Shown: positions 2,576 to 64,000 of the stretch, one piece after another
Layout of the letters: the number at the start of each line of letters is the position of its first letter
Position numbering within the stretch: the stretch's first letter is position 1
NCBI GenBank assembly: GCA_903944345.1
Contig: CAJARJ010000014.1
Location: 990-64,989 of the forward strand
DNA: 64,000 bases
Direction of reading: 5' to 3'
From: Candidatus Omnitrophota bacterium
GTDB taxonomy: Bacteria; Omnitrophota; Gorgyraeia; Zapsychrales; Fredricksoniimonadaceae
Translations under genes and position numbers: made by a program
Notes under the pieces: generated by a model
Told to the model about the DNA's origin: nothing
The model's input: the letters and a program-made list of their open reading frames with translations, nothing else
Databases searched by the model: none

Positions 2576-2896
2576 TAAGTGGATAAAAGCGACACGCACT
2601 AACTCTGTTACCCCAATCAATGTTTACAGAAATCTGCGAAACAACGCTGAAAAGAACCATCATTTTCAACACTTTAATAACCGGAAATCTGACTTGAATT
2701 CATCCGTATCTTTTTTGTACGAATACTTTCGTCGACATCAAAAGCCTGGAGTTCAATCCGGGTTTATTATTCCAAATAAAAAATTGTATTAAACGAAATT
2801 CATCTTATATTAGTAATGATTCAAAAAAATCCGGCATTAACAAAATCATTGTTCTGTGCTAACCCGGAAATCTGAAAAAAAATCAACTCCCGGTAT

Positions 2897-4315: not shown

Positions 4316-4350
4316 CTTACCTGTAGACCATCAATAGCGGCCAGACTTTT

Positions 4351-9052: not shown

Positions 9053-9070
9053 TTTCCTGCCTCCATAGTT

Positions 9071-9553: not shown

Positions 9554-10100
9554 CGGCCATCACCTCCTCTTTGATCCCCAGCAGTTTCTCGCGTCCGCGC
9601 TTGAGCCTCGAACGCACAACATTAATATTCACATTCAACGCCGCAGCAATCTGCTCATAAGTCAGACCTTCGATAGCGCGCAGGATCATGCAAACCCGCT
9701 GCTCGGGTGAAAGCGCGTCCAGCAATCGCCGGATCAGTCCTTCCTTATATTCTTTCTCTGCCGCCTGCGTTACTTCCGGCAAGGCCGCTCCGCTAAAAGC
9801 ATCATCATATTCAACCGTCCGGAATCTTTCCTTGCCTCTTTTACGGTAATAATTGATAGAAGTATTCACCGTAATCCGGTACAACCAGGTGCTTAAGGAA
9901 GACTCCGCACGAAACTCTTTAAGTCTGCTATGCATGGTCACAAAAACCTCCTGCACAATCTCACCGGCATCCTCACGGTTGCGCAAAATCCGCAAACTGA
10001 TGTTATACAGCTGATCCGCATACGTTCGGTAAATCTCTTCAAACGCTCCCACATCACCAGCCGCCGCCCGCTGAATCACTTCGCTGGATACATCCTTCAT
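9543..10100 (-). CDS. ECF (sigma-70 group 4, RpoE-like) sigma factor
   Basis: Region 2 (TWLYRITVNTSINYYRKR) and region 4 HTH (LTYEQIAAALNVNINVVRSRLKRGREKL). Confidence 0.85.
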   Translation of the reverse strand: MKDVSSEVIQRAAAGDVGAFEEIYRTYADQLYNISLRILRNREDAGEIVQEVFVTMHSRLKEFRAESSLSTWLYRITVNTSINYYRKRGKERFRTVEYDDAFSGAALPEVTQAAEKEYKEGLIRRLLDALSPEQRVCMILRAIEGLTYEQIAAALNVNINVVRSRLKRGREKLLGIKEEVMADEL

Positions 10101-10202
10101 TCAAACTCCTTACACCCAACCGGTTTAGGCTTGCCCGTTGAAAGACACTGGCATGCCTTTCAATTATTTAGACAAATCCTGGCAGAAAAAAGTTACGGTA
10201 AA

Positions 10203-13022: not shown

Positions 13023-13025
13023 AGG

Positions 13026-17362: not shown

Positions 17363-18150
17363 GTTTTTCGCGCCTTCTTTTTGCCAATAACGGGTTCCCG
17401 AAAACGCAGGTCTATATAATTGATTTGGGAGAAATCAATCTCCTGATGAGACAACAGCATTTGCAAAATATTCAGCTGGGAAGAATATTTATCCAGATCA
17501 AGGTAAACATCCAGTTCCCCTTTCTGCGAATCAATCGAAGCGACAATACGAGTTTTATCCGCAACATTCAGGCTGGAAAGAGCGCTATCGAGCAGCACCG
17601 GGTTCTTTTTAAACTCCCCGATAATGGCTACCGCAGACTGGAAAACCGAATCCACAATCCGCTCCCCCGCGGCGGGACGTTGATCCTTTATGCCTTTAAC
17701 CAGAACCAAGTCTTCCGTAGCCTTGTCTGCTGGTCTGATAAGCCAGCCGTCACGATCCGCCAAAAATGTCTTGCCGGCCAACGTAACCTTGACAAAAGGA
17801 TCTCTTCTGACAGCCATCACCACAATCTGGTCAGGAAACCGGCGCAGAACCCTGATTTCGGCGAGCGACGAATGTTTTTCCCGCAGCCGGGACTCGATCT
17901 TGCGAATATCAACAGCGAAAATCCGCTGCCCCTTGATCTTTTGCAGCTCGGAGAGATCCATCTTCTGCAATTCTTCAGTCAGTACAATATCTTTAACCGC
18001 GAACACCGGAGAATTGCGCAGATAACCGGACACTCCCCAAACCAGAAAAATCCCGGTCGAAAGAATGATCAGCATTATAGCGCCGATGCGAACTCCCTCA
18101 ACGGAGGGCTGCCGCCGATCTTTCTTTCTTTTTACCATAAGCCATTTCAA
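17359..18150 (-). CDS. ftsQ: Cell division protein FtsQ/DivIB
   Basis: Basic N-terminus, one TM helix and a POTRA-containing periplasmic domain. It lies between murC-ddl and ftsA. Confidence 0.75.
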   Translation of the reverse strand: MKWLMVKRKKDRRQPSVEGVRIGAIMLIILSTGIFLVWGVSGYLRNSPVFAVKDIVLTEELQKMDLSELQKIKGQRIFAVDIRKIESRLREKHSSLAEIRVLRRFPDQIVVMAVRRDPFVKVTLAGKTFLADRDGWLIRPADKATEDLVLVKGIKDQRPAAGERIVDSVFQSAVAIIGEFKKNPVLLDSALSSLNVADKTRIVASIDSQKGELDVYLDLDKYSSQLNILQMLLSHQEIDFSQINYIDLRFREPVIGKKKARKT

Positions 18151-20482: not shown

Positions 20483-20531
20483 GACAACTTTTCTCCATAG
20501 ACATAATCATTTCCAAATGCTTCCTTGCGGA

Positions 20532-21632
20532 TCATTCCGGCACAGCTTGTCCTGCCCGGGCGCACGAAAGTATCTCATCCGCCAGTTTTTGCCCCGGATC
20601 AGGATAAAATTCATCGATAACACTGTTTTGAAGAATTTGGCTGGAATGCGTCAGCGCCAGTACCTTGAAAATCTTATCTCCAAGGATAGCCGAACTCAAG
20701 AACTTTTCCTCAATTATTGCAGTTGCCTGCCTGCGCTCAAGAACACAGGCATTCATCCACTGATGATGGCCGGCACCAGGAAACGGAACAAGAACCGCAG
20801 GCACCCCCAGAACGCCCAGCTCGGTCACAGTTCCCGCACCGGCGCGGGTAACGGCGCAATCACAGGCCGCATAAGCCTCGTCAATATTGGCGATAAAAGG
20901 CCGTACGCAAGAAGGCTTTCCCAGATCATGATACTTCTTTTGATAAAAAGAATATTCCGTCTGTCCGCAAGATAAAATCACCTGAAAAGATTTCTCCGGG
21001 GGCAAGGAAGAGTACATCTCAAAAAAACACTCGTTGATACGCCGACTGCCCTGGCTGCCGCCAAAGACCAGAACCACTTTCTGCGCAGGATCAAGATTGA
21101 AACGGCGCACCGCATCCGCCCGGCTTAAAGATGTGTCGAACGAACGTACCGGAGTACCGGTCCAGACTGTTTTTGCGCGAGGGAAATATTCAAGTCCGGC
21201 ACGAAACCCTACGCATACTTTGCTGACAAATCCGGCCAACAGCCTGTTCGCTGATCCGGGAACAACATTCTGCTCATGGATTATCGTCGGAACAAAATGC
21301 AGGAGTCCGGCCAGAACCGCCGGGAATGAACTGTAGCCGCCAAAACCAATCACCACATCCGGCCTGAAACGCCCGATCACCCGCGCCGACCTAAGAACGC
21401 CCCTTACCATCATTCCGACAGACAAAAACTTGTCAGTGACCTTTTTGGCAACAAATCCCCTGGCAGGAACAATTTCAAACAAAAAACCGCGCTGACGCAA
21501 AACAGCTTCTGCCGAACCAAGCGCCCCAACGAAAAAGACATCAACGCCGCGACGACGCAACTCTTCGGCAACAAAAACAGCGGGATAAATATGCCCGCCT
21601 GTCCCTCCGGTGGCAATCAAAACTCTGGCCAT
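20532..21632 (-). CDS. murG: UDP-GlcNAc:undecaprenyl-PP-MurNAc-pentapeptide GlcNAc transferase
   Basis: MARVLIATGGTGGHIYPA... ...GGSQGSRRINE. Confidence 0.9.
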   Translation of the reverse strand: MARVLIATGGTGGHIYPAVFVAEELRRRGVDVFFVGALGSAEAVLRQRGFLFEIVPARGFVAKKVTDKFLSVGMMVRGVLRSARVIGRFRPDVVIGFGGYSSFPAVLAGLLHFVPTIIHEQNVVPGSANRLLAGFVSKVCVGFRAGLEYFPRAKTVWTGTPVRSFDTSLSRADAVRRFNLDPAQKVVLVFGGSQGSRRINECFFEMYSSLPPEKSFQVILSCGQTEYSFYQKKYHDLGKPSCVRPFIANIDEAYAACDCAVTRAGAGTVTELGVLGVPAVLVPFPGAGHHQWMNACVLERRQATAIIEEKFLSSAILGDKIFKVLALTHSSQILQNSVIDEFYPDPGQKLADEILSCARAGQAVPE

Positions 21633-21636
21633 AAAC

Positions 21637-22731
21637 TTAACCCCCCAGATCCTGCGCTCGGGAAACATTCAAGACAAGACCAACAATCGTCATATTAAAT
21701 ATCAGGGCCGATCCGCCATAACTGATGAAAGGCAACGGCAGTCCTTTAGTCGGTAAAGCACCTATGCTGACCCCGAAGTTAACCAGAACCTGGATAGAGA
21801 TCATAATCATGATCCCCAGACAAAGATAATACCCGAAAGGCTCATGGGTATTGCGAATAATTCTTGTTCCATACCAGATAAAAAGCGTAAAAAGAATAAT
21901 GACTGTCATAACTCCTAGGAATCCCAGTTCCTCGCCGATAATCGCAAAAATGAAATCCGTGTGCGCCGCAGGAAGATAAAACAACTTTTGTACACTTTTG
22001 CCAAGGCCGACACCCCAGAGTCCCCCGGATCCAAGAGCGATCTGGGACTGTGATAACTGAAAGCCTGCCCCCAAAGGATCACTCCAGGGATCAAGAAAAG
22101 CCACCACCCGCCGCAAACGGTACGGTGCCGAAATAATCAAGGCGGCCGCAACCGGCAACGCCATCAGAAAAATCCCCAGCAAGTGGGCTTTCTTTCCTCC
22201 AGCCAGACAAAGCATCATAAGCGCAATTGTAAACACCAAAACAGTATTGCCCATATCCGGCTGCTTGATGATCAAGCCACAGAGCAGTCCGGTCACAATC
22301 ATAACCGGAAGAAAGCCTTTTTTGAAACTGCGCAGGCATTCCTGTCTTCTGGTAAGAAAGTCCGCCATATAAAGAATCAGGGCAATTTTGGCAAACTCTG
22401 AAGGCTGGAAATTAATCGGCCCGAGACTAAACCAGCGTCGGGCTCCGGAAGAAATTCTTCCTATACCAGGCACCAGCACCAGAACAAGCAGCCCAATAGC
22501 AACCAGCAGAATCAATCTTGAATGCTTCTGCAGATCCCGATAATCCACAATCATCGCAATCCACATCATGACACTCCCGATCAGCATAAACATCAAATGC
22601 CGGGTCAGAAAATGCGAAGAATTTTTCATGACCTCCTGAGCGTAAATCGCGCTGGAACTGTAAATCATAACCGTTCCCAGCGCGAGCAAAACGCAAAAAA
22701 CCATGAAAAAACGGATACGAATATCCCGCAT
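21637..22731 (-). CDS. ftsW: FtsW/RodA/SpoVE-family peptidoglycan glycosyltransferase (FtsW by context)
   Basis: Ten-TM SEDS protein located in the dcw cluster. Confidence 0.9.
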   Translation of the reverse strand: MRDIRIRFFMVFCVLLALGTVMIYSSSAIYAQEVMKNSSHFLTRHLMFMLIGSVMMWIAMIVDYRDLQKHSRLILLVAIGLLVLVLVPGIGRISSGARRWFSLGPINFQPSEFAKIALILYMADFLTRRQECLRSFKKGFLPVMIVTGLLCGLIIKQPDMGNTVLVFTIALMMLCLAGGKKAHLLGIFLMALPVAAALIISAPYRLRRVVAFLDPWSDPLGAGFQLSQSQIALGSGGLWGVGLGKSVQKLFYLPAAHTDFIFAIIGEELGFLGVMTVIILFTLFIWYGTRIIRNTHEPFGYYLCLGIMIMISIQVLVNFGVSIGALPTKGLPLPFISYGGSALIFNMTIVGLVLNVSRAQDLGG

Positions 22732-22740
22732 AAGTCCTCT

Positions 22741-23994
22741 CTACAAACTATTAACAACATCCTTGAACACTCGTCCACGCTGTTCAAAATTGTCAAACAT
22801 ATCGTAACTGGCAAACATCGGACTGAGCAATACCTTCTGCCCGGCTGCGGCATGCCGTCGGGCAGCCAAAACAGCAGCGGACATGTCCGTATATTCTTCC
22901 AGCGGCACCACCCCTTCGAAGGCCTCGCGCAAAGTTTTGCGCACCGCATCTTCCCTGGTCAGAACGATCATCACTTTGACCGTCGCCCGCACCAGCTCTC
23001 GTAATCCGCGATAATCCATACCCTTGTCATGCCCGCCGCAAATAAGAACCAGTGGCCCGGGAGTGTTCGCCAGCGCCCAGCGCCCCGATTCAACGGTGGT
23101 GGACTTTGAATCATTGATATACTCAACGCCGTCCAACAACCTGACTTTTTCCAAGCGGTGTTCAACGCCCGCAAAGGAATCAAAAACACCACGGGCGACC
23201 TCGGCAGTCACTCCAAAAATTCTGCCTACAGCCGCGGCAGCCGTCTGGTTGGGATTCCCCTTTTCTTCAGGAGCATTAAAATACCGGATTCCGGCCTTTA
23301 GACCTTCCGGCAAACCGCGGGACCATTCATCCTGAGCATTGATCAAGGCATAATCAGAAGACTCCTGGTTACGAAAAATCTTCTTCTTGGCCTCGAAATA
23401 ATCCTGCATGTCCGGATGCCGGTCAAGATGGTTCTGGCTGAAATTGGTGATCAAGGCCACATACGGACGAAAAGTTTCTGTCAATTCCAGCTGAAAAGAG
23501 CTGATCTCGACCACAAACACATCAAACTGATCACCGGAAACATACTGCGAGAACGGCTGGCCAATATTCCCGCACAAACAAACTTTTTTCCCCCCGGCCT
23601 CAAGTACCCTGGCAATCAGGGTCACTGTCGTGGTTTTCCCGTTGCTTCCGGTAACCGCAACCACCGGTTTACGGCAAAAACGCCAGGCAAATTCAATCTC
23701 CCCGATCACGGGAATGCTTTGGGCACGCGCCCACTGCAGCGCGAGCGCGTCACGCCAGACTCCCGGACTGGCCACAACATAATCACTGGCCTGAATAAAA
23801 GCCGGAGTGTGCCCCCCGCTTTCAATCTGAACCCGGCTGCGATCCCTCAGCCCTTTTAAAGCCGCTTCCAGTTCACTTAACGGTCTAGTATCCGTTATAC
23901 GCACATCCGCCCCGGACGCAAGGGCAAGGTTGGCGGCAGCAATTCCGCTACGCGCGGCTCCCACAATAGTTACAATCCTGTTGTGCAAATCCAT
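22741..23994 (-). CDS. murD: UDP-N-acetylmuramoylalanine--D-glutamate ligase
   Basis: Mur ligase with ...VTGSNGKTTT... Confidence 0.9.
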   Translation of the reverse strand: MDLHNRIVTIVGAARSGIAAANLALASGADVRITDTRPLSELEAALKGLRDRSRVQIESGGHTPAFIQASDYVVASPGVWRDALALQWARAQSIPVIGEIEFAWRFCRKPVVAVTGSNGKTTTVTLIARVLEAGGKKVCLCGNIGQPFSQYVSGDQFDVFVVEISSFQLELTETFRPYVALITNFSQNHLDRHPDMQDYFEAKKKIFRNQESSDYALINAQDEWSRGLPEGLKAGIRYFNAPEEKGNPNQTAAAAVGRIFGVTAEVARGVFDSFAGVEHRLEKVRLLDGVEYINDSKSTTVESGRWALANTPGPLVLICGGHDKGMDYRGLRELVRATVKVMIVLTREDAVRKTLREAFEGVVPLEEYTDMSAAVLAARRHAAAGQKVLLSPMFASYDMFDNFEQRGRVFKDVVNSL

Positions 23995-24028
23995 AAAACC
24001 TTCCCGCCTGATTTTGCCTGGACTTCTA

Positions 24029-25123
24029 CTAACGTATCTTCAGGGTTGTCAACGTCAGTAAAACCAGAATAATACCCACTATCCAAAAACGTATTACGAT
24101 TTTCGATTCCTTCCAGTTCAGCTTTTGTAAATGATGATGAAAAGGAGAGCACAAAAAAATACGCTTGCCTGTCAGCTTGAAGGATGTGACCTGCATAATA
24201 ACCGACAAAGCCTCCCAGACGAAAACACCGCCCAAAATCCCCAGAAGCATTTCTTTCTTGATAAAAACAGCAATAATTCCCAGAGTGCCCCCCAGAGAGA
24301 GCGCTCCAACATCCCCCATAAAAACCGATGCGGGATGACAATTAAACCACAGAAAACCCAGACTGGCACCGATAATTGCAGTACAAAACACCGTCAGCTC
24401 ACCCGCATTGGGAATATAGGGAATAAAAAGATACTGACTAAAAGCAATATGTCCTGTTATATAAGCCAAAATGCTCAGTGCTATCGCCACCATCAGTGTG
24501 CATCCAATGGCCAACCCGTCCAGGCCATCCGTCAGATTAACAGCATTGGACGTTCCAACAACAATCAGCATAACGAGAATAATATAGCCCGCCCCCAAAT
24601 CAACCACCATCTTCTTCATGAAAGGGATATCGAGGGTTGTATCAACATGCAACTGGGTATACAAATACAAACTTACAATCGCCGCCAAAAGAACCTGCCA
24701 GATAATCTTGGTACGGGAACTCATCCCGTTCTTGTTGATGCCGGAAATTTTCAGATAATCATCAAAGAAGCCCACCACCGCCAGCCAGATCATGGTCACC
24801 AGCGTCAAAAGAATGTATGGATTGGATAAGTCTGCCCATAGAAGAACCGACACGGCAATACTACCGATAATCAGTATCCCTCCCATCGTGGGTGTCCCCT
24901 GCTTGGACTGATAATGTGCCGCGCCCAACGCAGCCTCACGTCCCCCGCCAGTCACCGGCTTTTCGCCTAAATTCCATTCCTTAAGCTTACGGATAAACCA
25001 CGGACCGATTACAACACACAGAAGAAATGTAGTCACCGCAGCCATGCCGGCACGAAATGTAATATACTTGAAAATATTCAAAGGAAAAAACTCAAAGCGA
25101 AACTGCGAAAGCCAATAAAGCAT
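24029..25123 (-). CDS. mraY: Phospho-N-acetylmuramoyl-pentapeptide transferase
   Basis: Polytopic membrane protein with ...NAVNLTDGLDGLA... Confidence 0.9.
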   Translation of the reverse strand: MLYWLSQFRFEFFPLNIFKYITFRAGMAAVTTFLLCVVIGPWFIRKLKEWNLGEKPVTGGGREAALGAAHYQSKQGTPTMGGILIIGSIAVSVLLWADLSNPYILLTLVTMIWLAVVGFFDDYLKISGINKNGMSSRTKIIWQVLLAAIVSLYLYTQLHVDTTLDIPFMKKMVVDLGAGYIILVMLIVVGTSNAVNLTDGLDGLAIGCTLMVAIALSILAYITGHIAFSQYLFIPYIPNAGELTVFCTAIIGASLGFLWFNCHPASVFMGDVGALSLGGTLGIIAVFIKKEMLLGILGGVFVWEALSVIMQVTSFKLTGKRIFLCSPFHHHLQKLNWKESKIVIRFWIVGIILVLLTLTTLKIR

Positions 25124-25126
25124 ACG

Positions 25127-26494
25127 CTATCCTTTCAGGAACAAAAGCAGATCCTTAACCACATTCTCCATCTTCATCCCGCGCGAACCTTTAACCAGAA
25201 CCGCATCCCCCGAACGGACATTCTCGCGTAAAAATGACAAAACCTCCTGCTGATCAGAACAGGAAACAACCCGGGTCTGTCCAGCGCCCTGCACAGCCCC
25301 TTGGGCGATATGTCGGGCCAGATTCCCGCAAGTCAAAAGAATATCAATCTTCCTGTCGGTCACGAATTCTCCGGCCTGTCGATGCAGATCTTGCGCTCCA
25401 GATCCCAATTCCAGCATATCAGCCGCCACCAGAATCGAGCGCGCGGGTCTTAGCATCTGCAGTGTACACACAGCATTCCTGAAAGAAACCGGATTGGCGT
25501 TATAGGCATCATCGATAACCGTCACACGCCCGGCACGGTGAAAGCACTGCCGCCCCGCCGGAGCACGGAAACGCAGCAACCCGCGGCGTATCTCGGAAAA
25601 AGGAATCTTCATCTCCCGGGCACAGGCGATCGCCGCCAAGGCATTATACAGGTTTCCGGGAACAGGGTCCTTCAGACGAAAAGCCTCTTTCCCCACACAA
25701 AAAGCCAGACCTTTGCGGCTGATTTCAACCTTTGTCGCCCGGATATCAGAAGGCTTGTCCACCGAGAACGTCACAGTTCTTAACGATGAAAACATCCCGG
25801 GCAGCCGAAATAAGCGGGCATCATCATTATTGACCACTAATAATCCTCCGGCGCGCACATACGCGGCCAGAGCCGCTTTCTCCTGAAAAACCCCGTCAGG
25901 AGAACCCAACCCTTCCAGATGCGATGGCCCGACATTGGTAAAAACCGCCACATCCGGCTCGACAATAGCCGCCAGACGGGCAATCTCGCCATGATGATTG
26001 GTTCCGGCCTCGATTACAGCCGCCTGATGCAAGGACTTCATTTTAAGCAGGGTTGCAGGCACCCCTATATGATTATTTTCTGTCCCTTTGTTAAACAGAA
26101 CGCGAAAGCGCGTCCCAAGAACAGCAGCGATCATTTCTTTGGTGGTGGTCTTTCCTGCACTTCCTGTCACCGCACAAATCCGGACACGGGAAAAGCTCTT
26201 CCGGTAAAACCGTGCCAGATCCCCGTAAGCCAGTACAGTATCCTTGACCGCAATCGCTACAACTCCAGCAGGAACAGGACAATTCCGGTCACTGATCAGC
26301 AGCGCCACCGCCCCGCCGGCAACAGCCTGGGCAAGGAAACAATGAGCATCAAAATGTTCGCCTTTAATCGCAACAAAAAGATCTCCTTTGCGGATATCGC
26401 GCGTATCTGTTGCTATCCGCCTGATCCGGATATCCGCCCCCCCCTGCAACAACTCTCCTGCAGTCGCCTGAAGGACTTCGCCTGCCGTCAGCAT
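25127..26494 (-). CDS. murF: UDP-MurNAc-tripeptide--D-alanyl-D-alanine ligase
   Basis: Mur ligase with ...VTGSAGKTTTKEM... Confidence 0.9.
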   Translation of the reverse strand: MLTAGEVLQATAGELLQGGADIRIRRIATDTRDIRKGDLFVAIKGEHFDAHCFLAQAVAGGAVALLISDRNCPVPAGVVAIAVKDTVLAYGDLARFYRKSFSRVRICAVTGSAGKTTTKEMIAAVLGTRFRVLFNKGTENNHIGVPATLLKMKSLHQAAVIEAGTNHHGEIARLAAIVEPDVAVFTNVGPSHLEGLGSPDGVFQEKAALAAYVRAGGLLVVNNDDARLFRLPGMFSSLRTVTFSVDKPSDIRATKVEISRKGLAFCVGKEAFRLKDPVPGNLYNALAAIACAREMKIPFSEIRRGLLRFRAPAGRQCFHRAGRVTVIDDAYNANPVSFRNAVCTLQMLRPARSILVAADMLELGSGAQDLHRQAGEFVTDRKIDILLTCGNLARHIAQGAVQGAGQTRVVSCSDQQEVLSFLRENVRSGDAVLVKGSRGMKMENVVKDLLLFLKG

Positions 26495-27969
26495 AAAACC
26501 TTTCCGTCCTGCCGCAAGCGCTTGCCGAGGAAACAGGACACAACAGAACTTTCCACAAAATCCAGCGTTTTATCTTTGAAAATCTGATAAGTTTCATGCC
26601 CTTTCCCGGCGAGCAGGACAATATCGTTCCTGCCGGCCATGGCCAGTGCCCGCTCAATGGCCTGCTGACGGTCTGGCTCAACTTCGTAATTCTCCCGGCT
26701 GAAACCAGGCAGGATTTCCTCAATAATAGCCAGCGGATCCTCGTTACGGGGATTATCCGAAGTAATGATGCAATAATCCGCCATCTCACCGGCCACACGC
26801 CCCATACGCGGACGTTTGGTCCGATCCCGGTCACCTCCGCAACCAAAAACAAGAATGAGACGATTATGCGCAACCCCCTTAAGACATTGCAAAACGTTAC
26901 GCAGACCATCATCCGTATGCGCGTAATCAATGTAAACACCAAAATCCTGTCCACAGTCAACCGGTTCCAGTCGTCCGGGAACATGTGCCAGCATATTGAT
27001 GCCCCGGCAAAGAACATCCAGCGAAAAACCTTCCGCCAGGCCGGCAGAGAATGCGGCCAGAATATTATAGATATTATGCTGACCTATAAAGGTGGTTTTG
27101 ACCTCGCATTCCCGGCCAAAAGCTTTGACCAGCAGACGGGTTCCCTTGAGACCAATCTCGCGCACCTCGGCGGTAATGTCCGCGGCAGAATGCAGGGCAT
27201 AAGAAATAACCCTCGCCCGGGTCAAGTTGCAAAGGCGGATTGCATAAGGATCATCATTATTGATCACCGCATAAGCATCCTCACTCAAAGACCGGAACAA
27301 AAGACTTTTGGCTGTAAAATATTCTTCCATTGTTCCGTGATAATCCAGATGGTCTCCGGTAAGATTGGTAAAAATGGCACCACAAAAATCAATCATATCC
27401 ACCCGTCCCTGAGCCAGGGCATGGGATGAAACTTCCATAACAGAATAAAGGATATTCTGAGTCGAAAGTGTGTGCAGAAACATCTGATTGTCCAGCATCC
27501 CGGGAGTGGTATTCTTCGCGGGCGAAACTTTTCCGCCTATACGGCAATTGACCGTTCCCGTAACGCCACAGGAGTGTCCTGCGGCGTTTAAAATCGACTC
27601 CAGCAGATAGGTAACAGTTGTCTTGCCATTAGTTCCCGTAACGCCAAGCACCCTGACCTGTCCGGAAGGCCTTGCGTAAAAACGCAATAATATCTGCTTA
27701 AACGCTTCGCGAGGATCTTCGACCGGAACCAACAGTGCCTGCGGATAGCTTTCCGAAAGAGAACGTGCCGTACGGCTATCAGCCAGCAAAACCGCTGCGC
27801 CTCGCTCCAGACCCTGACCGGCAAAATGTTCCGCACCCCGCATCAAAACCAGCAGGGATCCAGACATGACCCTCCGGGAATCATCCCACACGGAAGGAAC
27901 GCTGAGCGCTGGCAATCCGGCAATGACAGCCGGATCGGCCAGGCCAGACAAAAGTTCCCGCAAATTCAT
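26488..27969 (-). CDS. murE: UDP-MurNAc-L-Ala-D-Glu--2,6-diaminopimelate ligase
   Basis: Mur ligase with ...VTGTNGKTTVTYL... ...DNPRNEDP. Confidence 0.9.
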   Translation of the reverse strand: MNLRELLSGLADPAVIAGLPALSVPSVWDDSRRVMSGSLLVLMRGAEHFAGQGLERGAAVLLADSRTARSLSESYPQALLVPVEDPREAFKQILLRFYARPSGQVRVLGVTGTNGKTTVTYLLESILNAAGHSCGVTGTVNCRIGGKVSPAKNTTPGMLDNQMFLHTLSTQNILYSVMEVSSHALAQGRVDMIDFCGAIFTNLTGDHLDYHGTMEEYFTAKSLLFRSLSEDAYAVINNDDPYAIRLCNLTRARVISYALHSAADITAEVREIGLKGTRLLVKAFGRECEVKTTFIGQHNIYNILAAFSAGLAEGFSLDVLCRGINMLAHVPGRLEPVDCGQDFGVYIDYAHTDDGLRNVLQCLKGVAHNRLILVFGCGGDRDRTKRPRMGRVAGEMADYCIITSDNPRNEDPLAIIEEILPGFSRENYEVEPDRQQAIERALAMAGRNDIVLLAGKGHETYQIFKDKTLDFVESSVVSCFLGKRLRQDGKVLC

Positions 27970-29654
27970 TCTTTACTCCTTGTTTCGGCCGAAAGATATT
28001 TCAGGGAATCCTCCACAATTTCCTTGAAAACAGGACCGGCCACCACTCCACCATAATAGGCAGGATGCGGCTCATCAATAGTGACAATAATTGCAAACTT
28101 CGGATCTTCCACCGGGGCAAATCCGATAAATGAAGCCACGAACTTGCTGTGAGAATACGTCCCGCCAACGACTTTCTGCGCCGTACCCGTCTTGCCCCCT
28201 GCCGAAACATCCTTCATCTTGACCGCGCGTCCTGTCCCGTTATCAATAACCCCCTGCAAAATCAATTTAAGCCTCTGGGCGGTTTTCTCGTGCATAACAC
28301 GTGACACCATCTTGGGCCGGAATGAATGAACCACTCCCCCGTCCTGATGACGCACCATTTTTACATAATGCGGCTTCATATAAATTCCGTCATTGGCCAC
28401 CGCCGCAATCATGCCCGCCAATTGAACGGCTGTTACAGTAACTTCCTGCCCCATGGGGATAGCCCCGATTGATGTTTTTGACCAGGAAGAGACGGGTTTA
28501 AACATTCCGTTAACCTCGCCAATCATACCGATATCTGTCCTCATCCCGAAACGAAAACGCCGGCCGTATTCATAAACCTTGTCGGCTCCCAGTTTCTGGG
28601 CAATTTTGGCAAAGCCAATGTTACTGGACATCTCAACCACCCCCTGGAATGTCAGATTGCCATGCGGGTGCGCATCTTTGAGGATATGATTCGCTATCCG
28701 GTATTTTCCGTTCTCGCAAAAAATAACATCTTCCTCGTTAAATGCGCCCTCTTCCAGAGCCGCGGCCGCCGTAACGATCTTGAAAACCGATCCCGGCTCA
28801 AAAACAAAAGCCACCGCCCGATTAGTCCGGCTTTCCACACCGGTTGCGTCCGGCGCGTCCGGACGAAAAGTCGGACGATTGGCAAAAGCCAGAATTTCTC
28901 CGGTTCGAGGATCCATGACAATAACCGTTCCGGCGCGGGCATTATGTTTTGTTACCGCCTTGTCCAATGCCCTTTCAGCAATAAACTGTATTGTTTCATC
29001 AATAGTCAGAACAACATCATCCCCGTCTTTAGCCGGTAAATATTCTTTTTCGATCAGAAGATCACGTTGTCTGGCATCGCGCAAAACCTGCGCCATTCCT
29101 TTCTCACCCCGCAAATAACGGTCATACTCGTATTCGACGCCCTGCAGTCCGATATTGTCAATATTGGCAAAACCGATCACATGCGCCGCCATATTCCCGT
29201 TGGGATAAAAACGACGACTCTCTTTTACAAAAGCCGTGCCCGGCAGTTTGAGAGCCTTGATCTTCTCATAAACGTCCGCAGACAACTTTCTGGCCAGCCA
29301 AACAAAATACTTGGACTTACCCAGCTTTTCAAAAACAACAGACCGATTGAAGCCAAGAACCTTTGAAAGTTTTTCTGCCACAAGAGCCTTGTCGGCGTCA
29401 CTCATGGCACGGGGATTGGCATAGAGCGAATAAACCATGACATTCAGGGCCAGCGCCCGTCCGTTACGATCCAGAATACCGCCCCGTCTTGGCTCAAGCT
29501 CAACTGTATGATTCTGCTGCCTTTCTGCCTTGTCCGAAAGGTATCCTGACCTGAAAATCTGAATGGACGAAAGCTTGATTGTAAACAGAATCAGAAAGAA
29601 GAATATGACAGAAAAAAACAGACCGACTCGCAAGGGATGTTTGGTAAGAAACAC
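27966..29654 (-). CDS. ftsI: Penicillin-binding protein 3 (FtsI), class B transpeptidase, GTG start
   Basis: N-terminal TM anchor, then STIK- and SxN-type motifs and KTGTA. Confidence 0.9.
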   Translation of the reverse strand: MFLTKHPLRVGLFFSVIFFFLILFTIKLSSIQIFRSGYLSDKAERQQNHTVELEPRRGGILDRNGRALALNVMVYSLYANPRAMSDADKALVAEKLSKVLGFNRSVVFEKLGKSKYFVWLARKLSADVYEKIKALKLPGTAFVKESRRFYPNGNMAAHVIGFANIDNIGLQGVEYEYDRYLRGEKGMAQVLRDARQRDLLIEKEYLPAKDGDDVVLTIDETIQFIAERALDKAVTKHNARAGTVIVMDPRTGEILAFANRPTFRPDAPDATGVESRTNRAVAFVFEPGSVFKIVTAAAALEEGAFNEEDVIFCENGKYRIANHILKDAHPHGNLTFQGVVEMSSNIGFAKIAQKLGADKVYEYGRRFRFGMRTDIGMIGEVNGMFKPVSSWSKTSIGAIPMGQEVTVTAVQLAGMIAAVANDGIYMKPHYVKMVRHQDGGVVHSFRPKMVSRVMHEKTAQRLKLILQGVIDNGTGRAVKMKDVSAGGKTGTAQKVVGGTYSHSKFVASFIGFAPVEDPKFAIIVTIDEPHPAYYGGVVAGPVFKEIVEDSLKYLSAETRSKE

Positions 29655-29777
29655 AGCTGAAGTTCTCTAAATTAATTTTCGAAGTGGATATCCCGGCCCC
29701 TGGCTGAAAGGACAGAACGATTTTATTACAAACCCGCAGCTTTAGAAACACTTTTTACTGGCAAAAAAAACAACTAG

Positions 29778-29787
29778 CCCCCCCCCC
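29778..29787. repeat. C10 (G10 on coding strand) homopolymer in the unusually long 143-nt ftsL-ftsI spacer
   Basis: tagCCCCCCCCCCttgaacg, read directly. Confidence 0.6.
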
Positions 29788-29797
29788 TTGAACGCGA

Positions 29798-30157
29798 TTA
29801 ACGCGCGGCAAAAGCCAGGGCCATTTTTGAAAAGAAGCCTTCGGTCTTCTGTGCTCCGGTTTCCATCATCCTGGCAAGAGAAGAGGTTGAATCGGACGCC
29901 ACTTCGACAATATTCTTGCTGCTGACAAACTGATATTGACCGTTTTTATCCAGCAATTCCCGGCCAATATGATCCGAGGATCGCAAACGAATAATATCAT
30001 TTCTGACCCGGCCATTAATTTCCGCCAGCTGCTGGATATCCTGCTGCTTAACCTTACCTCGGTAAGCAAAAGAATAAATTTTGACCTGCAGATTAATATA
30101 CAAAACCGACATAACCGTAACCAAAACTACAATCCTCAAAAAATCGGACACTTTCAT
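29798..30157 (-). CDS. ftsL: FtsL-like small bitopic cell-division protein
   Basis: About 120 aa with one TM helix (LRIVVLVTVMSVLYINL) and a coiled-coil-like tail. It sits between rsmH and ftsI. Confidence 0.55.
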   Translation of the reverse strand: MKVSDFLRIVVLVTVMSVLYINLQVKIYSFAYRGKVKQQDIQQLAEINGRVRNDIIRLRSSDHIGRELLDKNGQYQFVSSKNIVEVASDSTSSLARMMETGAQKTEGFFSKMALAFAAR

Positions 30158-31053
30158 ACTACCCTTTCCAAACACCTTACCCGTGCACTTCTAGCCCTGG
30201 AATTTTCCACCGCTTCCTGACGCCCCGGCATCAACGGCTTTTTGGTAACCAGCCGCCCCTGATTGGTTCGCGCCAAAAGACGAAACATCTCTTTAACAAT
30301 CCGGTCTTCCAAAGAATGAAAGGCAATCACACAAAGACGCCCTCCCGGATTCAAAACTGAAAAAGCCTTCTCGATCCCTTCGCTCAAAGAATCCAGCTCC
30401 CGGTTCACCGCAATGCGCAAAGCCTGGAAGGTTCTCGTCGCCGGATGCAATGCTCCGCGCTGATAGCCTTTGGGCAGAGACCGTAAAATCAACGCGGCAA
30501 GCTCGGTTGTTGTTCGCAGTGGCGCTGACGCACGTGTCCGGATAATGGCTGCCGCGATTCTTCTGGAAAAACGCTCTTCTCCATAACGAAAAATAATATC
30601 AGCCAGCTCCCGCTCGGACATGGTATTGACCAGATCGCAGGCTGTTAACCCCTCGCCCTGGTTCATCCGCATGTCCAAAGGAGCCTCAACCCGAAAACTG
30701 AAACCGCGCTCCCCATCGTCCAACTGAAGGCTCGAAACCCCCAGATCAAACAAAACTGTATCCACCCGCGCAACCCCAAGTCCATCCAGAACCTGGGTCA
30801 TCTGACAAAAATTGGCCTGGACAATGTCCAGCCGACAGGAAACCTGCGCCAGCCGCTCTCTGGCCCTGACAATGGCCTGGGCATCCTGATCGATGCCAAT
30901 CAGTCGACCGGTCGAACCCAGCGCCTGCGCGGCCAATAATGCATGCCCGCCCAGACCAAGAGTCCCGTCCACATGCACGGTGCCAGGGCGTATGCTTAAA
31001 AGAGTCTCGACCTCAACCGGCATGACCGGAATATGCCCTGCTTCAACTGCCAT
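30154..31053 (-). CDS. rsmH: 16S rRNA m4C1402 methyltransferase RsmH (MraW)
   Basis: GHIPVMPVEVE... ...DGTLGLGGH... ...DLGVSSLQLD. Confidence 0.9.
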   Translation of the reverse strand: MAVEAGHIPVMPVEVETLLSIRPGTVHVDGTLGLGGHALLAAQALGSTGRLIGIDQDAQAIVRARERLAQVSCRLDIVQANFCQMTQVLDGLGVARVDTVLFDLGVSSLQLDDGERGFSFRVEAPLDMRMNQGEGLTACDLVNTMSERELADIIFRYGEERFSRRIAAAIIRTRASAPLRTTTELAALILRSLPKGYQRGALHPATRTFQALRIAVNRELDSLSEGIEKAFSVLNPGGRLCVIAFHSLEDRIVKEMFRLLARTNQGRLVTKKPLMPGRQEAVENSRARSARVRCLERVV

Positions 31054-31069
31054 AAAAATCGCCCTTCAA

Positions 31070-31357
31070 TCAGACTCCGGCGAAAGACATTGCTGATGCC
31101 ACAAAACTTGGAATTTTACGCTCGAGAATGGCTTGCTCAAACCCTTCCCATACCGATTCGTATTCTTCGGGATCAAGAACTTCTTCCCAATTACCTCTAA
31201 TACCGCAACGCATATAAATCTTGCGCCGATCGCGAAAAACAAGAAAAAGCCGGATCCGTCCACTTTCTTCTTCCTGGGTGGAACAAAAAACACATTCGCA
31301 ATGCGGCAACTCGACCATATGCCTGAAAACAAACTTGTGATGAATACAATTCACCAT
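31070..31357 (-). CDS. Small Cys/His-rich hypothetical protein inserted between mraZ and rsmH
   Basis: ATG at 31355-31357 is preceded by GGGGAGG at 5 nt. The product MVNCIHHKFVFRHMVELPHCECVFC... is 95 aa. Confidence 0.45.
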   Translation of the reverse strand: MVNCIHHKFVFRHMVELPHCECVFCSTQEEESGRIRLFLVFRDRRKIYMRCGIRGNWEEVLDPEEYESVWEGFEQAILERKIPSFVASAMSFAGV

Positions 31358-31394
31358 AAAGACCTCCCCGGGCAGAAAGGTTGACACACACAGC

Positions 31395-31838
31395 TCAACT
31401 CTGAATATCAAAAAGCGTTTCCGCTGTCTGTTCAAAGACCGACGCTGACTTGGTAAAGAACTCCTGCCACACGGCCCGATCCCAGATTTCGATCCGGCTG
31501 GACACCCCGATAATGACCGACTCTTCCTTGATGCCGGCAAAATCTTTTAGATACTGAGGAATAATAAAGCGTCCCTGCTTGTCGGGAATAACATCCACCG
31601 CTCCGGAGAAAAACATCCGGTTAAAAGTACGCGAGCTTTCTTTGGTAAACGAAAGTGTTTTGAGTTTCTGCTCTATTGCGCGCCACTCCGGCTCGCTAAA
31701 CATGAACACGCAACGCTCTAAACCTCTAGTAACGAAGAACTTATTAATTGACTGATCTCTGGCTGTTTCACGAAAACGCGCAGGCAGAATTAATCTGCCC
31801 TTACTGTCAAGCGCGTGCGTGTATTCGCCGTAAAACAT
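31395..31838 (-). CDS. mraZ: Transcriptional regulator MraZ
   Basis: MFYGEYTHALDSKGRLILPARFRE... with a second half-domain ...PDKQGRFIIPQYL. The ORF-track 5' extension to 31946 is unlikely. Confidence 0.85.
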   Translation of the reverse strand: MFYGEYTHALDSKGRLILPARFRETARDQSINKFFVTRGLERCVFMFSEPEWRAIEQKLKTLSFTKESSRTFNRMFFSGAVDVIPDKQGRFIIPQYLKDFAGIKEESVIIGVSSRIEIWDRAVWQEFFTKSASVFEQTAETLFDIQS

Positions 31839-31870
31839 GAGCAACTCCTCCAGCCAGGATGCCAGTAAAC

Positions 31871-31907
31871 CACTTTGTGGCACTTCCCTCCACCATCTGC
31901 CACAAGT
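31871..31907 (-). promoter_or_regulatory. Candidate MraZ operator: four GTG[G/C]N direct repeats at 10-bp periodicity, 33-70 nt upstream of the mraZ start
   Basis: Minus strand reads cttGTGGCagatgGTGGAgggaaGTGCCacaaaGTGGt. Confidence 0.4.
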
Positions 31908-32150
31908 ATATCCCTCCCCCAAGGGCTTGTCAATACTGAAAGCCACAAAACAACGTAAAAATACCGCTTTAAAAACAAAGACTCTTGCCGTCGGGATAAA
32001 TAAGAAATAACATTCCTAGTGGAGTGAAATACCAGAGAAAATGGGGAAAATTAAACGGAAATCGCGCCCCGGAACTCAATAACGACGAGTCCGTATGCAG
32101 GCAGGATATATGCCATCAAGCGAGCTTGCGAGCTGCAGAAACCGAAAAAT

Positions 32151-60327: not shown

Positions 60328-60528
60328 TCAGTTGAGATCACCTGCGGTCTGCTGCCTGATCATCCCGGCCGGACTAGCTGCTACATCATTAACCAGTCGA
60401 TGAAAAACCCCGTTCTGCGCCGCAAAATAAATGACGACTACAATAACCGCAGCAACAAGTATGATGTATTCCAACATCTGCTGGCCACAACGATTTGACC
60501 GGGAAAAATAAGAAAATTTTATGCACAT
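60328..60528 (-). CDS. Flp/Fap-type pilin-like small peptide (class III leader G/XXXXEY)
   Basis: MCIKFSYFSRSNRCG/QQMLEYIILVAAVIVVVIYFAAQNG...: a Gly, four residues, then EY and a hydrophobic helix. No tad genes adjacent. Confidence 0.4.
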   Translation of the reverse strand: MCIKFSYFSRSNRCGQQMLEYIILVAAVIVVVIYFAAQNGVFHRLVNDVAASPAGMIRQQTAGDLN

Positions 60529-60634: not shown

Positions 60635-62965
60635 TTAGCGGTTCTCCACAGCATTGAACAGACGATCATAGACTTTACGCAAATAATATTCCGTCCTGGG
60701 TCTGTAGTCCCGGTTCACCGGAAGTTTCCCGAACTTCTCCCGGATATAAGCCTGATCGCCAACAAGATTGCCCGCCGAATCCCCCTCCTGAATCTGCTCA
60801 AAACGCCGTATCTCGTTCTGGACATCATCCGGATACATCGCTAAAAGACTTTCTTTAAGCGTCACATCCAAACGCAGCGGAGAAACCGAAGCCAGACAAA
60901 AACTGCCATACAAACGGACAAATGGAAAAACCTCATGCAGGGTTCTGGGAATAATCTGGTACTCATTTGACCAGATCAATAAAACCCCTTCCGGAGCCAG
61001 ATGCTGCCTGATCAATTCAAAGAACTCTGCCGAATGCAAATTGTTGCTATACACTGTCGTGGCATGCAAAGGATCCATTAATACCAGATCATATCGCTCT
61101 TTACTGCCCAGTAAAAAGCGGCGGGCATCATCTATAACCAGCTTTAATCTGGGATTGGTCAGCATCTCGCGAAAGAAATCAATCTTGGTAATATTTTTCA
61201 TCAACGTACGATTGATCTCGACTAAAGTGATATTCCTCACCGACGGCATGTCGAGCAAAACCTCCGGTGTGGTTCCTGTGCCGTAACCGATCACCAGAAC
61301 TTTTTCCTGCTGACGGGTATGACTGACGGCCTCGATAGTTTTATGATAAAAATGCAGAGCCGGACGCCAGCCATGACCTACCCCGTCAATAAAGTTAATC
61401 AGCCTCCAGGCCGAACCCTGCGCGTAAACAACTCCCTCCACACCTTCTTCGAAAAACTCCTCTTCCTGGCGAATGTCTCCGGTGATCATGCTGGTGCCCA
61501 CCCGGAACACTTGCCTGTAAAGATCTCCACGTGCAGGAAAAAACAGAAACATACAAAACAGGACTCCCGCAATCAACGCCCCTTTGGGCATCAGCCCCAG
61601 GCGCAAGGATCGAGGCAACAAAGACCACCCGCCAAGAAGCATCCCTGCCGCAATAAAAAGCGCAAGCGTACGCTCTGTTCCCAGAAAAGGTAAGAAAACA
61701 AAGCCGGTCACAATTCCACCCAGCACGTTCCCGAGAATATTAAAAAAATACACCCTGGCCACAACACTGGCCTCGTGACCCGGTTTCCCGGAACAGAGAA
61801 AGGCTATAAGAGGAAAACTGGCTCCGATAAAAAGAGCGGGAACGAAAATAAAATACATCGGCCAAAGAATAAAATCTCCGACATAAAAACCATTAACCAG
61901 TGTTCTGGACAGCCAGGATAAAGAAGAAGTGTCCAGCGGCAGCAAGTCCAAAGGCGGATGCAGATTGGAGGTAAAAGATATCTCCGTAAGAATTCTCAAA
62001 GGTGTCTGCAGTGTTAAATAAAAAACAAAAACACTGGCCCAGACACTTAACGCAACTGCCGCCTGAATACCAAAAAAAAGGTGCCGACGATTAAGCGCGG
62101 GCCGCTTGTCCAGATAAAACTTCATCCCGTAACTGCCCAGAGCGATCCCGGCCAGATAAACTCCCAGCGAAGAAGAAAAATTATACGCCGAAGCTTTGGT
62201 TAAAATACTCATCAGCCGAAACCAGATAATTTCATAACCTATCGCCAGAAAACCGGAGACAAAAACCAGGAACAAGCCCGCTCGCCCCAGAAACTCCTCC
62301 GCACCCGGAATGTTATGCCCGGAAACATCAGGGGGCTGCTCTTGCCGTGCGGCCTGGGGCCTGGCGGAAAGTGCAGCAATCATGAGGGCCAGAACACAAT
62401 TTATTGCAGCCGCAATATAAACCGCCCGATCCAGGCCAAACAATGTGATAAAAACAAAACTTGCCGTCAGACAGCCGGCCGCAGCTCCTATGGTATTAAT
62501 AAAATAAAGATAACTGATCACATGAATAAAATCGCGCCTGATCCCGGTAAAAATCTTGATCAAGACCGGGAGAGTGATCCCCATCAACATGGTAGGTACA
62601 CACAAGAAAAGAAAAATGACCAGAAAAGACAGCCAGGTACCGGCGCCTGCCGTCTGGGCGGCCAATAACTGCAAAAAAGGCAAGCTGATAACACCGAAAA
62701 GACCAATCGCCAGCTCAATATAGAAATAAAAACGAATTCTGTTACTGAACTTCTCGGCACACAAACCGCCGATCAACGCTCCAGCGCCCAGGCCGAGCAT
62801 ATAAACACTGACAATGATAGTCGTGGAAACAGAACCTACCCCCCAATACAGCGTTAGCAGCCGCTGCCAGGCCACCTGGTAGACCAAAGACGCGAATCCC
62901 GAAAAGAAAAACACCAGCAGCAGAACATTTCTTTCCATGATCACCTCGGAAATATTGGAACGCAA
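60635..62965 (-). CDS. Fused polytopic membrane / spermidine-synthase-like (PABS) protein
   Basis: N-terminal FFFSGFASLVYQVAWQRLLTLYWG with about 13 TM helices, then a C-terminal aminopropyltransferase-like domain VLVIGYGTGTT... LVLMDP. Confidence 0.7.
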   Translation of the reverse strand: MRSNISEVIMERNVLLLVFFFSGFASLVYQVAWQRLLTLYWGVGSVSTTIIVSVYMLGLGAGALIGGLCAEKFSNRIRFYFYIELAIGLFGVISLPFLQLLAAQTAGAGTWLSFLVIFLFLCVPTMLMGITLPVLIKIFTGIRRDFIHVISYLYFINTIGAAAGCLTASFVFITLFGLDRAVYIAAAINCVLALMIAALSARPQAARQEQPPDVSGHNIPGAEEFLGRAGLFLVFVSGFLAIGYEIIWFRLMSILTKASAYNFSSSLGVYLAGIALGSYGMKFYLDKRPALNRRHLFFGIQAAVALSVWASVFVFYLTLQTPLRILTEISFTSNLHPPLDLLPLDTSSLSWLSRTLVNGFYVGDFILWPMYFIFVPALFIGASFPLIAFLCSGKPGHEASVVARVYFFNILGNVLGGIVTGFVFLPFLGTERTLALFIAAGMLLGGWSLLPRSLRLGLMPKGALIAGVLFCMFLFFPARGDLYRQVFRVGTSMITGDIRQEEEFFEEGVEGVVYAQGSAWRLINFIDGVGHGWRPALHFYHKTIEAVSHTRQQEKVLVIGYGTGTTPEVLLDMPSVRNITLVEINRTLMKNITKIDFFREMLTNPRLKLVIDDARRFLLGSKERYDLVLMDPLHATTVYSNNLHSAEFFELIRQHLAPEGVLLIWSNEYQIIPRTLHEVFPFVRLYGSFCLASVSPLRLDVTLKESLLAMYPDDVQNEIRRFEQIQEGDSAGNLVGDQAYIREKFGKLPVNRDYRPRTEYYLRKVYDRLFNAVENR

Positions 62966-62999: not shown

Positions 63000-63323
63000 C
63001 TAAAGAACGATGCGCTCGGACAAGGCAGATATGAAGGGTAATAAGACCTGCCGGCCTTTAAGAGCCATCAGCATGCCCCAAAAGGCCAACAAAAAACATG
63101 CAAACCAAAGCGGACGGGCAAGCCAGGGAATCAGAATTGTTAAAAGAAGCACCGCAACTTCACAAAGAAAAAGCGCCAGCCCCTGACGTGCGTGAGACTG
63201 GACAAATTGATCATCTTTACGATAAATCAGGGGAATTACGCAGAGAAAAAAAATGTACGAGAGAAAAGCGTAAACACGATTCTCATCTATCTTCTGAAAA
63301 AAAGGCACCGCAGACTTAGGCAT
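63000..63323 (-). CDS. DUF4870-family small membrane protein
   Basis: ...AFLSYIFFLCVIPLIY... ...HARQGLALFLCEV... Confidence 0.55.
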   Translation of the reverse strand: MPKSAVPFFQKIDENRVYAFLSYIFFLCVIPLIYRKDDQFVQSHARQGLALFLCEVAVLLLTILIPWLARPLWFACFLLAFWGMLMALKGRQVLLPFISALSERIVL

Positions 63324-64000
63324 TCAGTCCGACCTCAATCAGGGAATTCATATCACCAAAACCGTTGCTGACACGACGCTCATTGGCGGGATCCGATACC
63401 CAGCGGCCATCAACAACAAACTGGTACTGATATGATCCCGGCGGCAGAGACATGCGCAAAGACCATTTACCATCGGCCCCCTTCTCCATACGACACTCAT
63501 CATTGAGCGACCAGTCATTGAAAGATCCGGACAAATAAACCGACTGGGCTTCCGGAGCGACCAGTGCGAAAGTGGCCTGGGAAAGAACCTCCATCTCGCG
63601 GGAAACGATTTGCTGCATCTTCGGCGAAAACTCGGCAGACGAAGACTCCTGACGGGTGCGGCCTTCTTCGATGGCGATCAACTCCTTGGCCAGGCTGAGA
63701 TAATCCTTGGAACCACGGCAGTACTTGTCATAATGAATAACGGGCTTGCCGTCAACCGCAGCTTCCTTGAGCTTGACATTGACATGCACAATAGTTCCCA
63801 GAAGCATTTCGCCAAACTGGGAACGAATCTGATCGAGCATCACAAAAGAATGACGCAAACGGGAATCAAACATGGTCACCAGAACACGGGCCACCACCGG
63901 ATGATTCAGCCGGTCACGGATAAGCCGGACAATGTCCATCAAATGATCCACCCCCTGAACCGAAAAACGGCTCATTTCGACGGGAATCATAACCTCGTGA
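63316..64000 (-). CDS. ParA/Soj-family ATPase (5' part beyond window end) fused to a C-terminal AMPK-beta-type glycogen-binding domain (CBM48)
   Basis: The window-edge translation ...HEVMIPVEMSRFSVQGVDHLMDIVRLIRDRL... VLVTMFDSR... ...GKPVIHYDKYCRGSKDYLSLAKEL is a ParA C-terminal half. The tail VYLSGSFNDWSL... LPPGSYQYQFVVDGRWVSDP matches the AMPK-beta glycogen-binding domain. Confidence 0.75.
   Translation of the reverse strand, partial: HEVMIPVEMSRFSVQGVDHLMDIVRLIRDRLNHPVVARVLVTMFDSRLRHSFVMLDQIRSQFGEMLLGTIVHVNVKLKEAAVDGKPVIHYDKYCRGSKDYLSLAKELIAIEEGRTRQESSSAEFSPKMQQIVSREMEVLSQATFALVAPEAQSVYLSGSFNDWSLNDECRMEKGADGKWSLRMSLPPGSYQYQFVVDGRWVSDPANERRVSNGFGDMNSLIEVGLNA

Follow-up and report, generated by a model that had tools for sequence, protein, structure and literature searches.

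ParA/MinD-type ATPases are a general bacterial means of placing chromosomes, plasmids, carboxysomes, chemoreceptor arrays and division sites. A chromosomal parA gene normally lies adjacent to parB and is usually origin-proximal, whereas in the McdA/McdB-type systems an orphan ParA-type ATPase serves a non-DNA cargo and a separate adaptor both reaches that cargo and stimulates the ATPase. Polyhydroxybutyrate granules are tethered to the nucleoid by PhaM and PhaF, which bind DNA as well as the granule, and are shared between daughter cells; these proteins are not ATPases and bind via histone-like tails and phasin domains. In AMPK β, PTST and SEX4, a non-catalytic CBM48, a carbohydrate-binding module (CBM), brings a partner to glycogen or starch. 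We know of no ParA-type positioning system for glycogen, the commonest bacterial carbon store, and to our knowledge the spacing and inheritance of glycogen particles are essentially unstudied. Here we describe a gene at the edge of a 64,000-nucleotide stretch of a Candidatus Omnitrophota genome (assembly GCA_903944345.1, contig CAJARJ010000014.1, positions 990 to 64,989; hereafter, the window) that encodes a Soj/ParA-type ATPase fused to a CBM48 module. This protein, which we term ParA–CBM48, is a candidate coupler of glycogen to the nucleoid.

The ParA–CBM48 open reading frame (ORF) occupies window positions 63316–64000 on the − strand, terminates at a TAA stop codon at 63318–63316 and runs off the window edge after 227 codons, such that this stretch is the 3′ part of the gene. 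The full product comprises approximately 367 residues, of which the first approximately 140 codons, including Walker A, lie outside the window edge. A 367-residue database orthologue (P0001) is 98% identical across all 227 residues of the fragment. Its N terminus reads MKIITVANQKGGCGKTT, its Walker A sequence is NQKGGCGKTT (motif KGGCGKT) and its Pfam matches are AAA_31 (E = 2e-52), CbiA, CBP_BcsQ (E = 4.6e-11) and MipZ. Because a protein this similar has one, the part of the gene beyond the window edge is expected to encode a complete deviant-Walker-A ATPase. An initial annotation, made from the letters of the window, had proposed that a ParA/Soj ATPase is joined here to an AMPK-β-type module; the full-length orthologue bears this out, with an intact KGGCGKT in a complete ATPase domain and a CBM48 behind it.

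The portion of the ATPase that lies in the window (63664–64000, − strand) corresponds to the C-terminal half of a Soj/ParA-type domain, approximately residues 141–252 of the orthologue, as judged by PDB sequence search, Foldseek and family conservation. This half carries the invariant motifs TMFDSRLRHSF, NVKLKE and DKYCRG.KDY; taken alone, it is too short for a Pfam call and returns weak BcsQ/MinD/ParA matches in NCBIfam. In a PDB sequence search with the ATPase, ParA 8ray was the first match (E = 8.5e-50), followed by the Soj proteins of Helicobacter pylori (HpSoj) and Thermus thermophilus (TtSoj). An AlphaFold (AF2) model of ParA–CBM48, built with 55 orthologues in the alignment, exhibited a mean predicted local distance difference test score (pLDDT) of 77.6 and was laid out as the ATPase, a loose linker with a helix at residues 266–278 and a β-sandwich at residues 280–363. 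When this model was submitted to Foldseek, Bacillus subtilis Soj, ParA 8ray, HpSoj and TtSoj were the top matches (E = 4e-24 to 1e-18), with the ATPase 38–41% identical to the chromosomal Soj/ParA proteins. Structures of MinD, McdA, FlhG and BcsQ ranked clearly below these, that of McdA being a clear but more distant match. Moreover, the MinD-type C-terminal membrane-targeting helix is absent, because the C terminus is the CBM48 β-sandwich, and no min genes were present in the Pfam-annotated neighbourhoods. The ATPase is a member of the ParA/MinD superfamily that lies nearest to chromosomal Soj/ParA in sequence and fold, and not to MinD, McdA or BcsQ.

Residue conservation was assessed in 120 diverse representatives of the fusion family. 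The signature lysine (K10), the Walker A lysine (K15), the Walker A′ aspartates (D37 and D39) and the Walker B aspartate (D124) are invariant among them, so that ParA–CBM48 and the chromosomal proteins have in common the fold, the deviant Walker A with its signature lysine and the Walker A′ and B motifs, in addition to being best matches in sequence and structure. In contrast to chromosomal Soj/ParA, ParA–CBM48 has a C-terminal linker and CBM48, and a cysteine replaces the valine of KGGVGKT to give KGGCGKT (115 of the 120 representatives). Conservation of the DNA-binding surface is partial. The DNA-contact residue K230 of HpSoj aligns with K216, which is lysine or arginine in 93 of the 120, and the neighbouring K218 is basic in 98; of the other DNA-binding lysines of HpSoj, K199 is replaced by phenylalanine and K247 by tyrosine, and K227 falls in a gap. 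Further invariant basic residues lie nearby (R187, R189, K218, K232 and R235).

The C-terminal part of the window fragment (63328–63576, − strand) is a CBM48/AMPK-β-type glycogen-binding module, identified by two Pfam families and by alignment to the structure 1z0n. PF16561 (AMPK1_CBM) matches fragment residues 150–224 (E = 3.8e-14; score 53.1 bits, cut-off 26.8), and PF02922 (CBM_48) matches residues 140–200 (E = 1.4e-6, 28.9 bits against a cut-off of 22.4). The best match among solved structures is the glycogen-binding domain of rat AMPK β1 (1z0n/1z0m, E = 3.5e-11), and SEX4 was also matched. The initial annotation had described the likeness to AMPK β as almost residue for residue; the match is indeed strong, but with 29 of 67 residues identical (43%) that wording was too generous. 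The partner of the module also sets the protein apart from AMPK β, PTST and SEX4, for here a bacterial, cytoplasmic ParA ATPase stands in the place of a kinase scaffold, a coiled coil or a phosphatase.

In AMPK β1, residues W100, K126, W133 and N150 are critical for carbohydrate binding (PMC4032982). In the alignment to 1z0n, the window protein has W, Q, W and N at these positions and F in place of L146, and all five residues are invariant in the Omnitrophota family. Across the 120 fusion representatives, the W100 equivalent is tryptophan in every protein and the W133 equivalent in 116; the N150 equivalent is asparagine or aspartate in 113, and the K126 equivalent is lysine or arginine in 116, with glutamine found in the Omnitrophota clade. 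This pattern indicates that the sugar-contact residues are under strong purifying selection. The α-glucan site looks intact across the family, which suggests that the module binds glucan. An alternative is that the CBM48-like fold has lost carbohydrate binding and now serves as a protein–protein or dimerization module of an ordinary orphan ParA with some other cargo. The glutamine at the K126 position in Omnitrophota and the lack of linked glg genes would both suit such a role, as would the protein contacts that the CBM48 of AMPK also makes, but the two tryptophans and the asparagine are almost invariant over at least 27 divergent groups and the K126 position is basic outside Omnitrophota. Because of this conservation pattern, retained sugar binding is expected, and we consider the loss of binding to be quite improbable.

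The fusion is not a peculiarity of one genome. A first homology search returned 1,069 matches; the 120 that were listed are nearly all 360–390 residues long with both domains, and the named proteins among them are from Candidatus Omnitrophota. A scan of one genome per species, with the C-terminal 190 residues as the query, detected relatives of the Omnitrophota type in at least 425 species. The best 80 of these 425 are Omnitrophota, or metagenome-assembled genomes (MAGs) mislabelled as ‘uncultured Planctomycetales’ or ‘Elusimicrobia’, and include a complete 3.36-Mb chromosome. An exhaustive HMMER search covered 1.84 billion cluster representatives; among the 150 that matched best, 126 contained the ATPase followed by one C-terminal CBM48, and these fusion representatives form at least 27 groups at 40% identity. 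Finally, a profile of the fusions from outside Omnitrophota matched 3,564 proteins at E ≤ 1e-20; few of these carry a name, and those that do belong to Sedimentisphaerales, Phycisphaerae and Tepidisphaeraceae, all Planctomycetota. Together, the representatives, the result with the 3,564-protein profile and the residue conservation point to an old, large family that spans the Planctomycetes–Verrucomicrobia–Chlamydiae (PVC) group, here Omnitrophota and Planctomycetota, with both the ATPase and the sugar site under purifying selection. Its members are named ‘AAA family ATPase’ or ‘chromosome partitioning protein’ in the databases, and we found no description of a ParA–CBM48 protein, or of a link between ParA and glycogen, in the searchable full-text literature, outside of which most subscription journals lie.

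The two domains are joined in the window protein by a linker of approximately 29 residues (63577–63663, − strand), delimited from the AF2 model and from family linker statistics. It contains a short predicted helix (FSxKMxxhVxxE), which is modelled with low to moderate pLDDT. In the wider fusion family, the length of the linker ranges from 6 to 366 residues. That the architecture has been kept in at least 27 groups despite this variation fits a flexibly tethered binding module.

Two further kinds of protein were encountered during these searches. Five giant database proteins (P0241, P0247, P0250, P0318 and P0338), of up to 1,920 residues, contain 6–18 tandem CBM48-like repeats that are approximately 36–41% identical to the CBM of the ParA–CBM48 family. 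A 319-residue Omnitrophota ParA (P0536; L092:5001–5960) has the KGGCGKT motif and no CBM48, with a 66-residue charged tail in its stead; both contigs that carry its gene stop shortly after it, the sequence there is non-coding and no ParB is visible. No canonical ParA/ParB of Omnitrophota was identified among the representative matches, almost all of which are nameless, and P0536 is the one named ParA that lacks the CBM.

Because the family unites a Soj-type switch, an intact-looking α-glucan site and a variable tether, the simplest reading of ParA–CBM48 is a nucleoid–glycogen coupler. We suggest that the protein is an ATP-switched tether or positioner that couples α-glucan (glycogen) particles to the nucleoid, and we place the probability of this reading at approximately 0.45, given that each functional step, namely dimerization, DNA binding, glucan binding, tethering and the role of a membrane partner, is deduced from the domains. 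In the mechanism that we envisage, ATP-bound ATPase domains would form a sandwich dimer that binds nucleoid DNA non-specifically, and each dimer would offer two flexibly linked CBM48 modules to glycogen particles. Many weak contacts of this kind would tether the particles to the nucleoid. Hydrolysis of ATP would then free the contacts and allow the particles to spread along the nucleoid, such that granules would be spaced and inherited by both daughter cells. The proposed logic of the tether is that of PhaM and PhaF, which lack a nucleotide switch and act on another polymer. Like the ATPases of McdA/McdB and other orphan ParA systems, ParA–CBM48 is an orphan of the ParA type that could plausibly use the nucleoid to place a cytoplasmic cargo other than DNA. 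It differs from them in that the module that reaches the cargo is fused to the ATPase instead of residing on a separate adaptor, and in that no granule-borne activator is evident.

Comparison of gene contexts across 87 Omnitrophota loci showed that ParA–CBM48 is the second of three genes in an operon that hardly varies within this phylum. A gene of approximately 192 codons lies directly upstream in all 78 loci with room for it, separated by gaps of mostly 14–45 nt, and a gene for a membrane protein of approximately 107 residues is the next one downstream of ParA–CBM48 in 80 of 86 loci, with overlaps of mostly 1–8 nt. In the window, this third gene occupies positions 63000–63323 (− strand) in the ORF list and encodes a 107-residue protein with three predicted helices. 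The 8-nt overlap that had been noted between the two genes is present, with the ATG at 63323–63321 and the ParA–CBM48 stop at 63318–63316, and recurs in orthologues. The label DUF4870, given to the downstream protein in the initial annotation, holds at the level of the family, in which 11 of 37 orthologues match PF09685 (best E = 9.2e-5) and for close members of which the precomputed annotation lists PF09685; it does not hold for the window copy itself, which has no Pfam match at E ≤ 0.01.

The upstream gene lies outside the window and was characterized from related loci (for example, L001:9403–9984, L005:9404–9994, L006:9404–9982 and L007:9388–9972). Its product has no Pfam domain and belongs to a family of bitopic membrane proteins found only in Omnitrophota. 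The predicted structure (pLDDT 83) consists of a cytoplasmic N-terminal helix (residues 3–19), a transmembrane helix (residues 32–66) and a periplasmic β jelly roll that resembles CBM11, CBM4, CBM30 and CBM8 in Foldseek (E down to 3e-7). Conservation within the protein is highest in the 18-residue cytoplasmic N-terminal helix, MTRDEIYDHLAxVYLGKR. Short N-terminal peptides of ParB, MinE and McdB act on their respective ATPases, and by analogy we propose that this helix is an ATPase partner of ParA–CBM48. In Omnitrophota it would be the best candidate for that role, tuning the ATPase cycle at the inner membrane. In its fullest form, the proposal is that ParA–CBM48 is the core of an unrecognized nucleoid system, widespread in Omnitrophota and Planctomycetota, that positions and partitions glycogen granules, with the cargo module fused to the ATPase and, in Omnitrophota, a membrane partner that sets the site of hydrolysis through its N-terminal helix. 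We offer this composite picture tentatively, as possible rather than probable.

Of the 87 loci, 57 have a fourth gene after the DUF4870-like one (for example, L007:11460–11975 and L005:11439–12104). Its product has a disordered, very basic N terminus rich in Lys, Arg, Ser and Thr, and ends in a small barrel weakly like domain 2 of EF-Tu. It was considered as an McdB-style adaptor and rejected as a core part of the system because it is missing from the window, from the closest relatives of the window and from the planctomycetes. In the lineage of the window (four loci), and only there, the operon is directly followed by a gene (window 60635–62965, − strand) for a 776-residue polytopic membrane protein whose N-terminal part is MFS-like and which also has a domain resembling spermine/spermidine synthase. 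Beyond it, a 66-residue ORF (60331–60528, − strand) contains a class III signal peptide/Flp-pilin-like motif, GQQMLEYIILVAAV (Pfam Class_IIIsignal, E = 5e-4), and small genes of a similar kind also follow the cassette at some further loci of the phylum.

The regularity of this operon also raises the possibility that the protein organizes an envelope complex in Omnitrophota, much as BcsQ or TadZ does. In that case it would dock on the upstream cytoplasmic helix and the DUF4870-like protein and place a polysaccharide or envelope machine, possibly with an AlgE-like barrel, with the CBM48 holding a cytoplasmic or nascent glucan. Several features of the locus agree with such a role, among them the near-constant presence of both membrane-protein genes across short gaps and overlaps, the CBM11/CBM4/CBM30-like fold of the upstream periplasmic domain and an Alginate_exp-type (AlgE-like) outer-membrane barrel, of the kind seen in polysaccharide export, that precedes the cassette in 66 loci. 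The CBP_BcsQ match of P0001 is a further point of likeness to BcsQ, but this match is much weaker than that to Soj, structures of BcsQ and MinD come far behind Soj in the ranking, and there is no MinD-like C-terminal membrane helix. Moreover, the cassette contains no glycosyltransferase or synthase and the locus no bcs genes, the family of the upstream protein is confined to Omnitrophota, and in Planctomycetota the fusion stands alone without these partners: six planctomycete fusion genes have unrelated neighbours, none of them conserved. An envelope organizer therefore strikes us as unlikely.

The genomic setting of the fusion gene also bears on whether it belongs to a partition locus. ParB was sought by phmmer with B. 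subtilis Spo0J, a query validated on PDB ParBs (E = 3e-121), in the window and 94 related loci that amount to 1.47 Mb, approximately 10 kb around the gene. No ParB was found in this material, no second ParA was found either, and the Pfam-annotated contexts contained no neighbouring ParB. The initial annotation had named a consistent setting in plasmid partition loci with parB as evidence that would speak against a glycogen role; parB adjoins the gene in 0 of the 94 related loci. The Omnitrophota gene sits in a phylum-wide syntenic block of housekeeping genes, adjoining rpsO–pnp–ftsK–rodZ, and occurs on contigs of up to 3.4 Mb; the window itself, whose other genes are of a housekeeping kind, carries dcw (division and cell wall), rib, ligA, pnp and ftsK genes. 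A plasmid locus or a classical parAB partition locus is ruled out by this chromosomal housekeeping context and the lack of parB. The likelihood of a ParA that serves to partition a plasmid or phage, for which nothing but the ParA fold speaks, is close to nil.

A more serious contender is a chromosome-segregation ParA (Soj) with an unlinked ParB–parS, in which the CBM48 would sense, or sequester the protein via, glycogen and thereby couple segregation or replication control to carbon storage, much as the CBM of AMPK β might suggest. The closeness of the ATPase to chromosomal Soj/ParA in both sequence and structure agrees with this idea, as do the housekeeping block and the position of one planctomycete copy (locus L088), which lies approximately 6 kb from dnaN–dciA–gyrB. 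The failure to see another ParA in the related loci could be counted with these points but says little, because the loci cover a small part of each genome. On the other side, none of the 94 loci has the parB gene that is the usual neighbour of a chromosomal parA, and the family forms a clade of its own with the Walker A cysteine. On balance, we regard a chromosomal ParA as rather unlikely. As a separate observation, L088 contains a 209-residue ParB_N gene (L088:2423–3052) 5 kb to the other side of the fusion gene, on the opposite strand and surrounded by phage-like genes; this gene does not qualify as a canonical neighbouring parB.

Several observations weigh against a nucleoid–glycogen coupler. 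Only one of the four DNA-binding lysines of HpSoj aligns with a conserved basic residue. Neither the window nor the Pfam-annotated contexts contained a glycogen-metabolism gene as a conserved neighbour, so that the initial annotation's look-out for neighbouring glg genes drew a blank, and only one other CBM48-bearing ORF was seen in all of the loci examined. A true diffusion ratchet needs a cargo-borne ATPase activator, and none was evident on the granule side; a partner anchored in the membrane would be located away from the granule. In Omnitrophota, the strict linkage of the gene in one operon with those for two inner-membrane proteins gives a hint of a role at the envelope, and a purely nucleoid-based model is weakened in that it leaves this invariant arrangement unexplained. 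Lastly, the lineages that carry the protein may use it as their chromosomal ParA. In favour of glycogen as the cargo, Omnitrophota MAGs, including that of Candidatus Aceula, have been reported, by inference, to encode glycogen synthesis, and the Candidatus Aceula meridiana MAG carries a ParA–CBM48 gene (locus L068).

The remainder of the window contains further genes of note. A dcw cluster (16118–31946, − strand) comprises mraZ, mraW, ftsI, murE, murF, mraY, murD, ftsW, murG, a murC–ddl fusion, an ftsQ-like gene and ftsA. The fusion is a single 794-residue ORF (18101–20482, − strand) with Mur ligase (MurC-type) and D-Ala-D-Ala ligase domains. The cluster has no ftsZ, and queA directly follows ftsA; a query with Escherichia coli FtsZ had no match in the window or in any fetched related locus. 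Positions 1–14588 encode a ShlB/FhaC-type two-partner-secretion barrel that is cut by the window edge, a MacB–HlyD–OEP efflux set, a zf-HC2 anti-sigma-like protein, a PIF1-type helicase with a WYL domain and two large ORFs without a Pfam match, of 472 residues (2897–4315) and 1,030 residues (9930–13022).

In this family of thousands of proteins, the ATPase bears the mark of its presumed cargo in its own sequence, namely a CBM48 whose sugar contacts are conserved. ParA–CBM48 is a ParA with a fused, presumed cargo module, and its cargo is probably of a new class. If the nucleoid–glycogen coupler is correct, ParA–CBM48 would be among the few ParA proteins that bind their cargo directly, without an adaptor, which bears on how much of the diffusion-ratchet machinery is required, and it would be the first ParA-type system to serve a storage granule made of polysaccharide. 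If the module instead senses glycogen on behalf of a chromosomal ParA, the family would link carbon storage to chromosome segregation, a connection that is equally unexplored.

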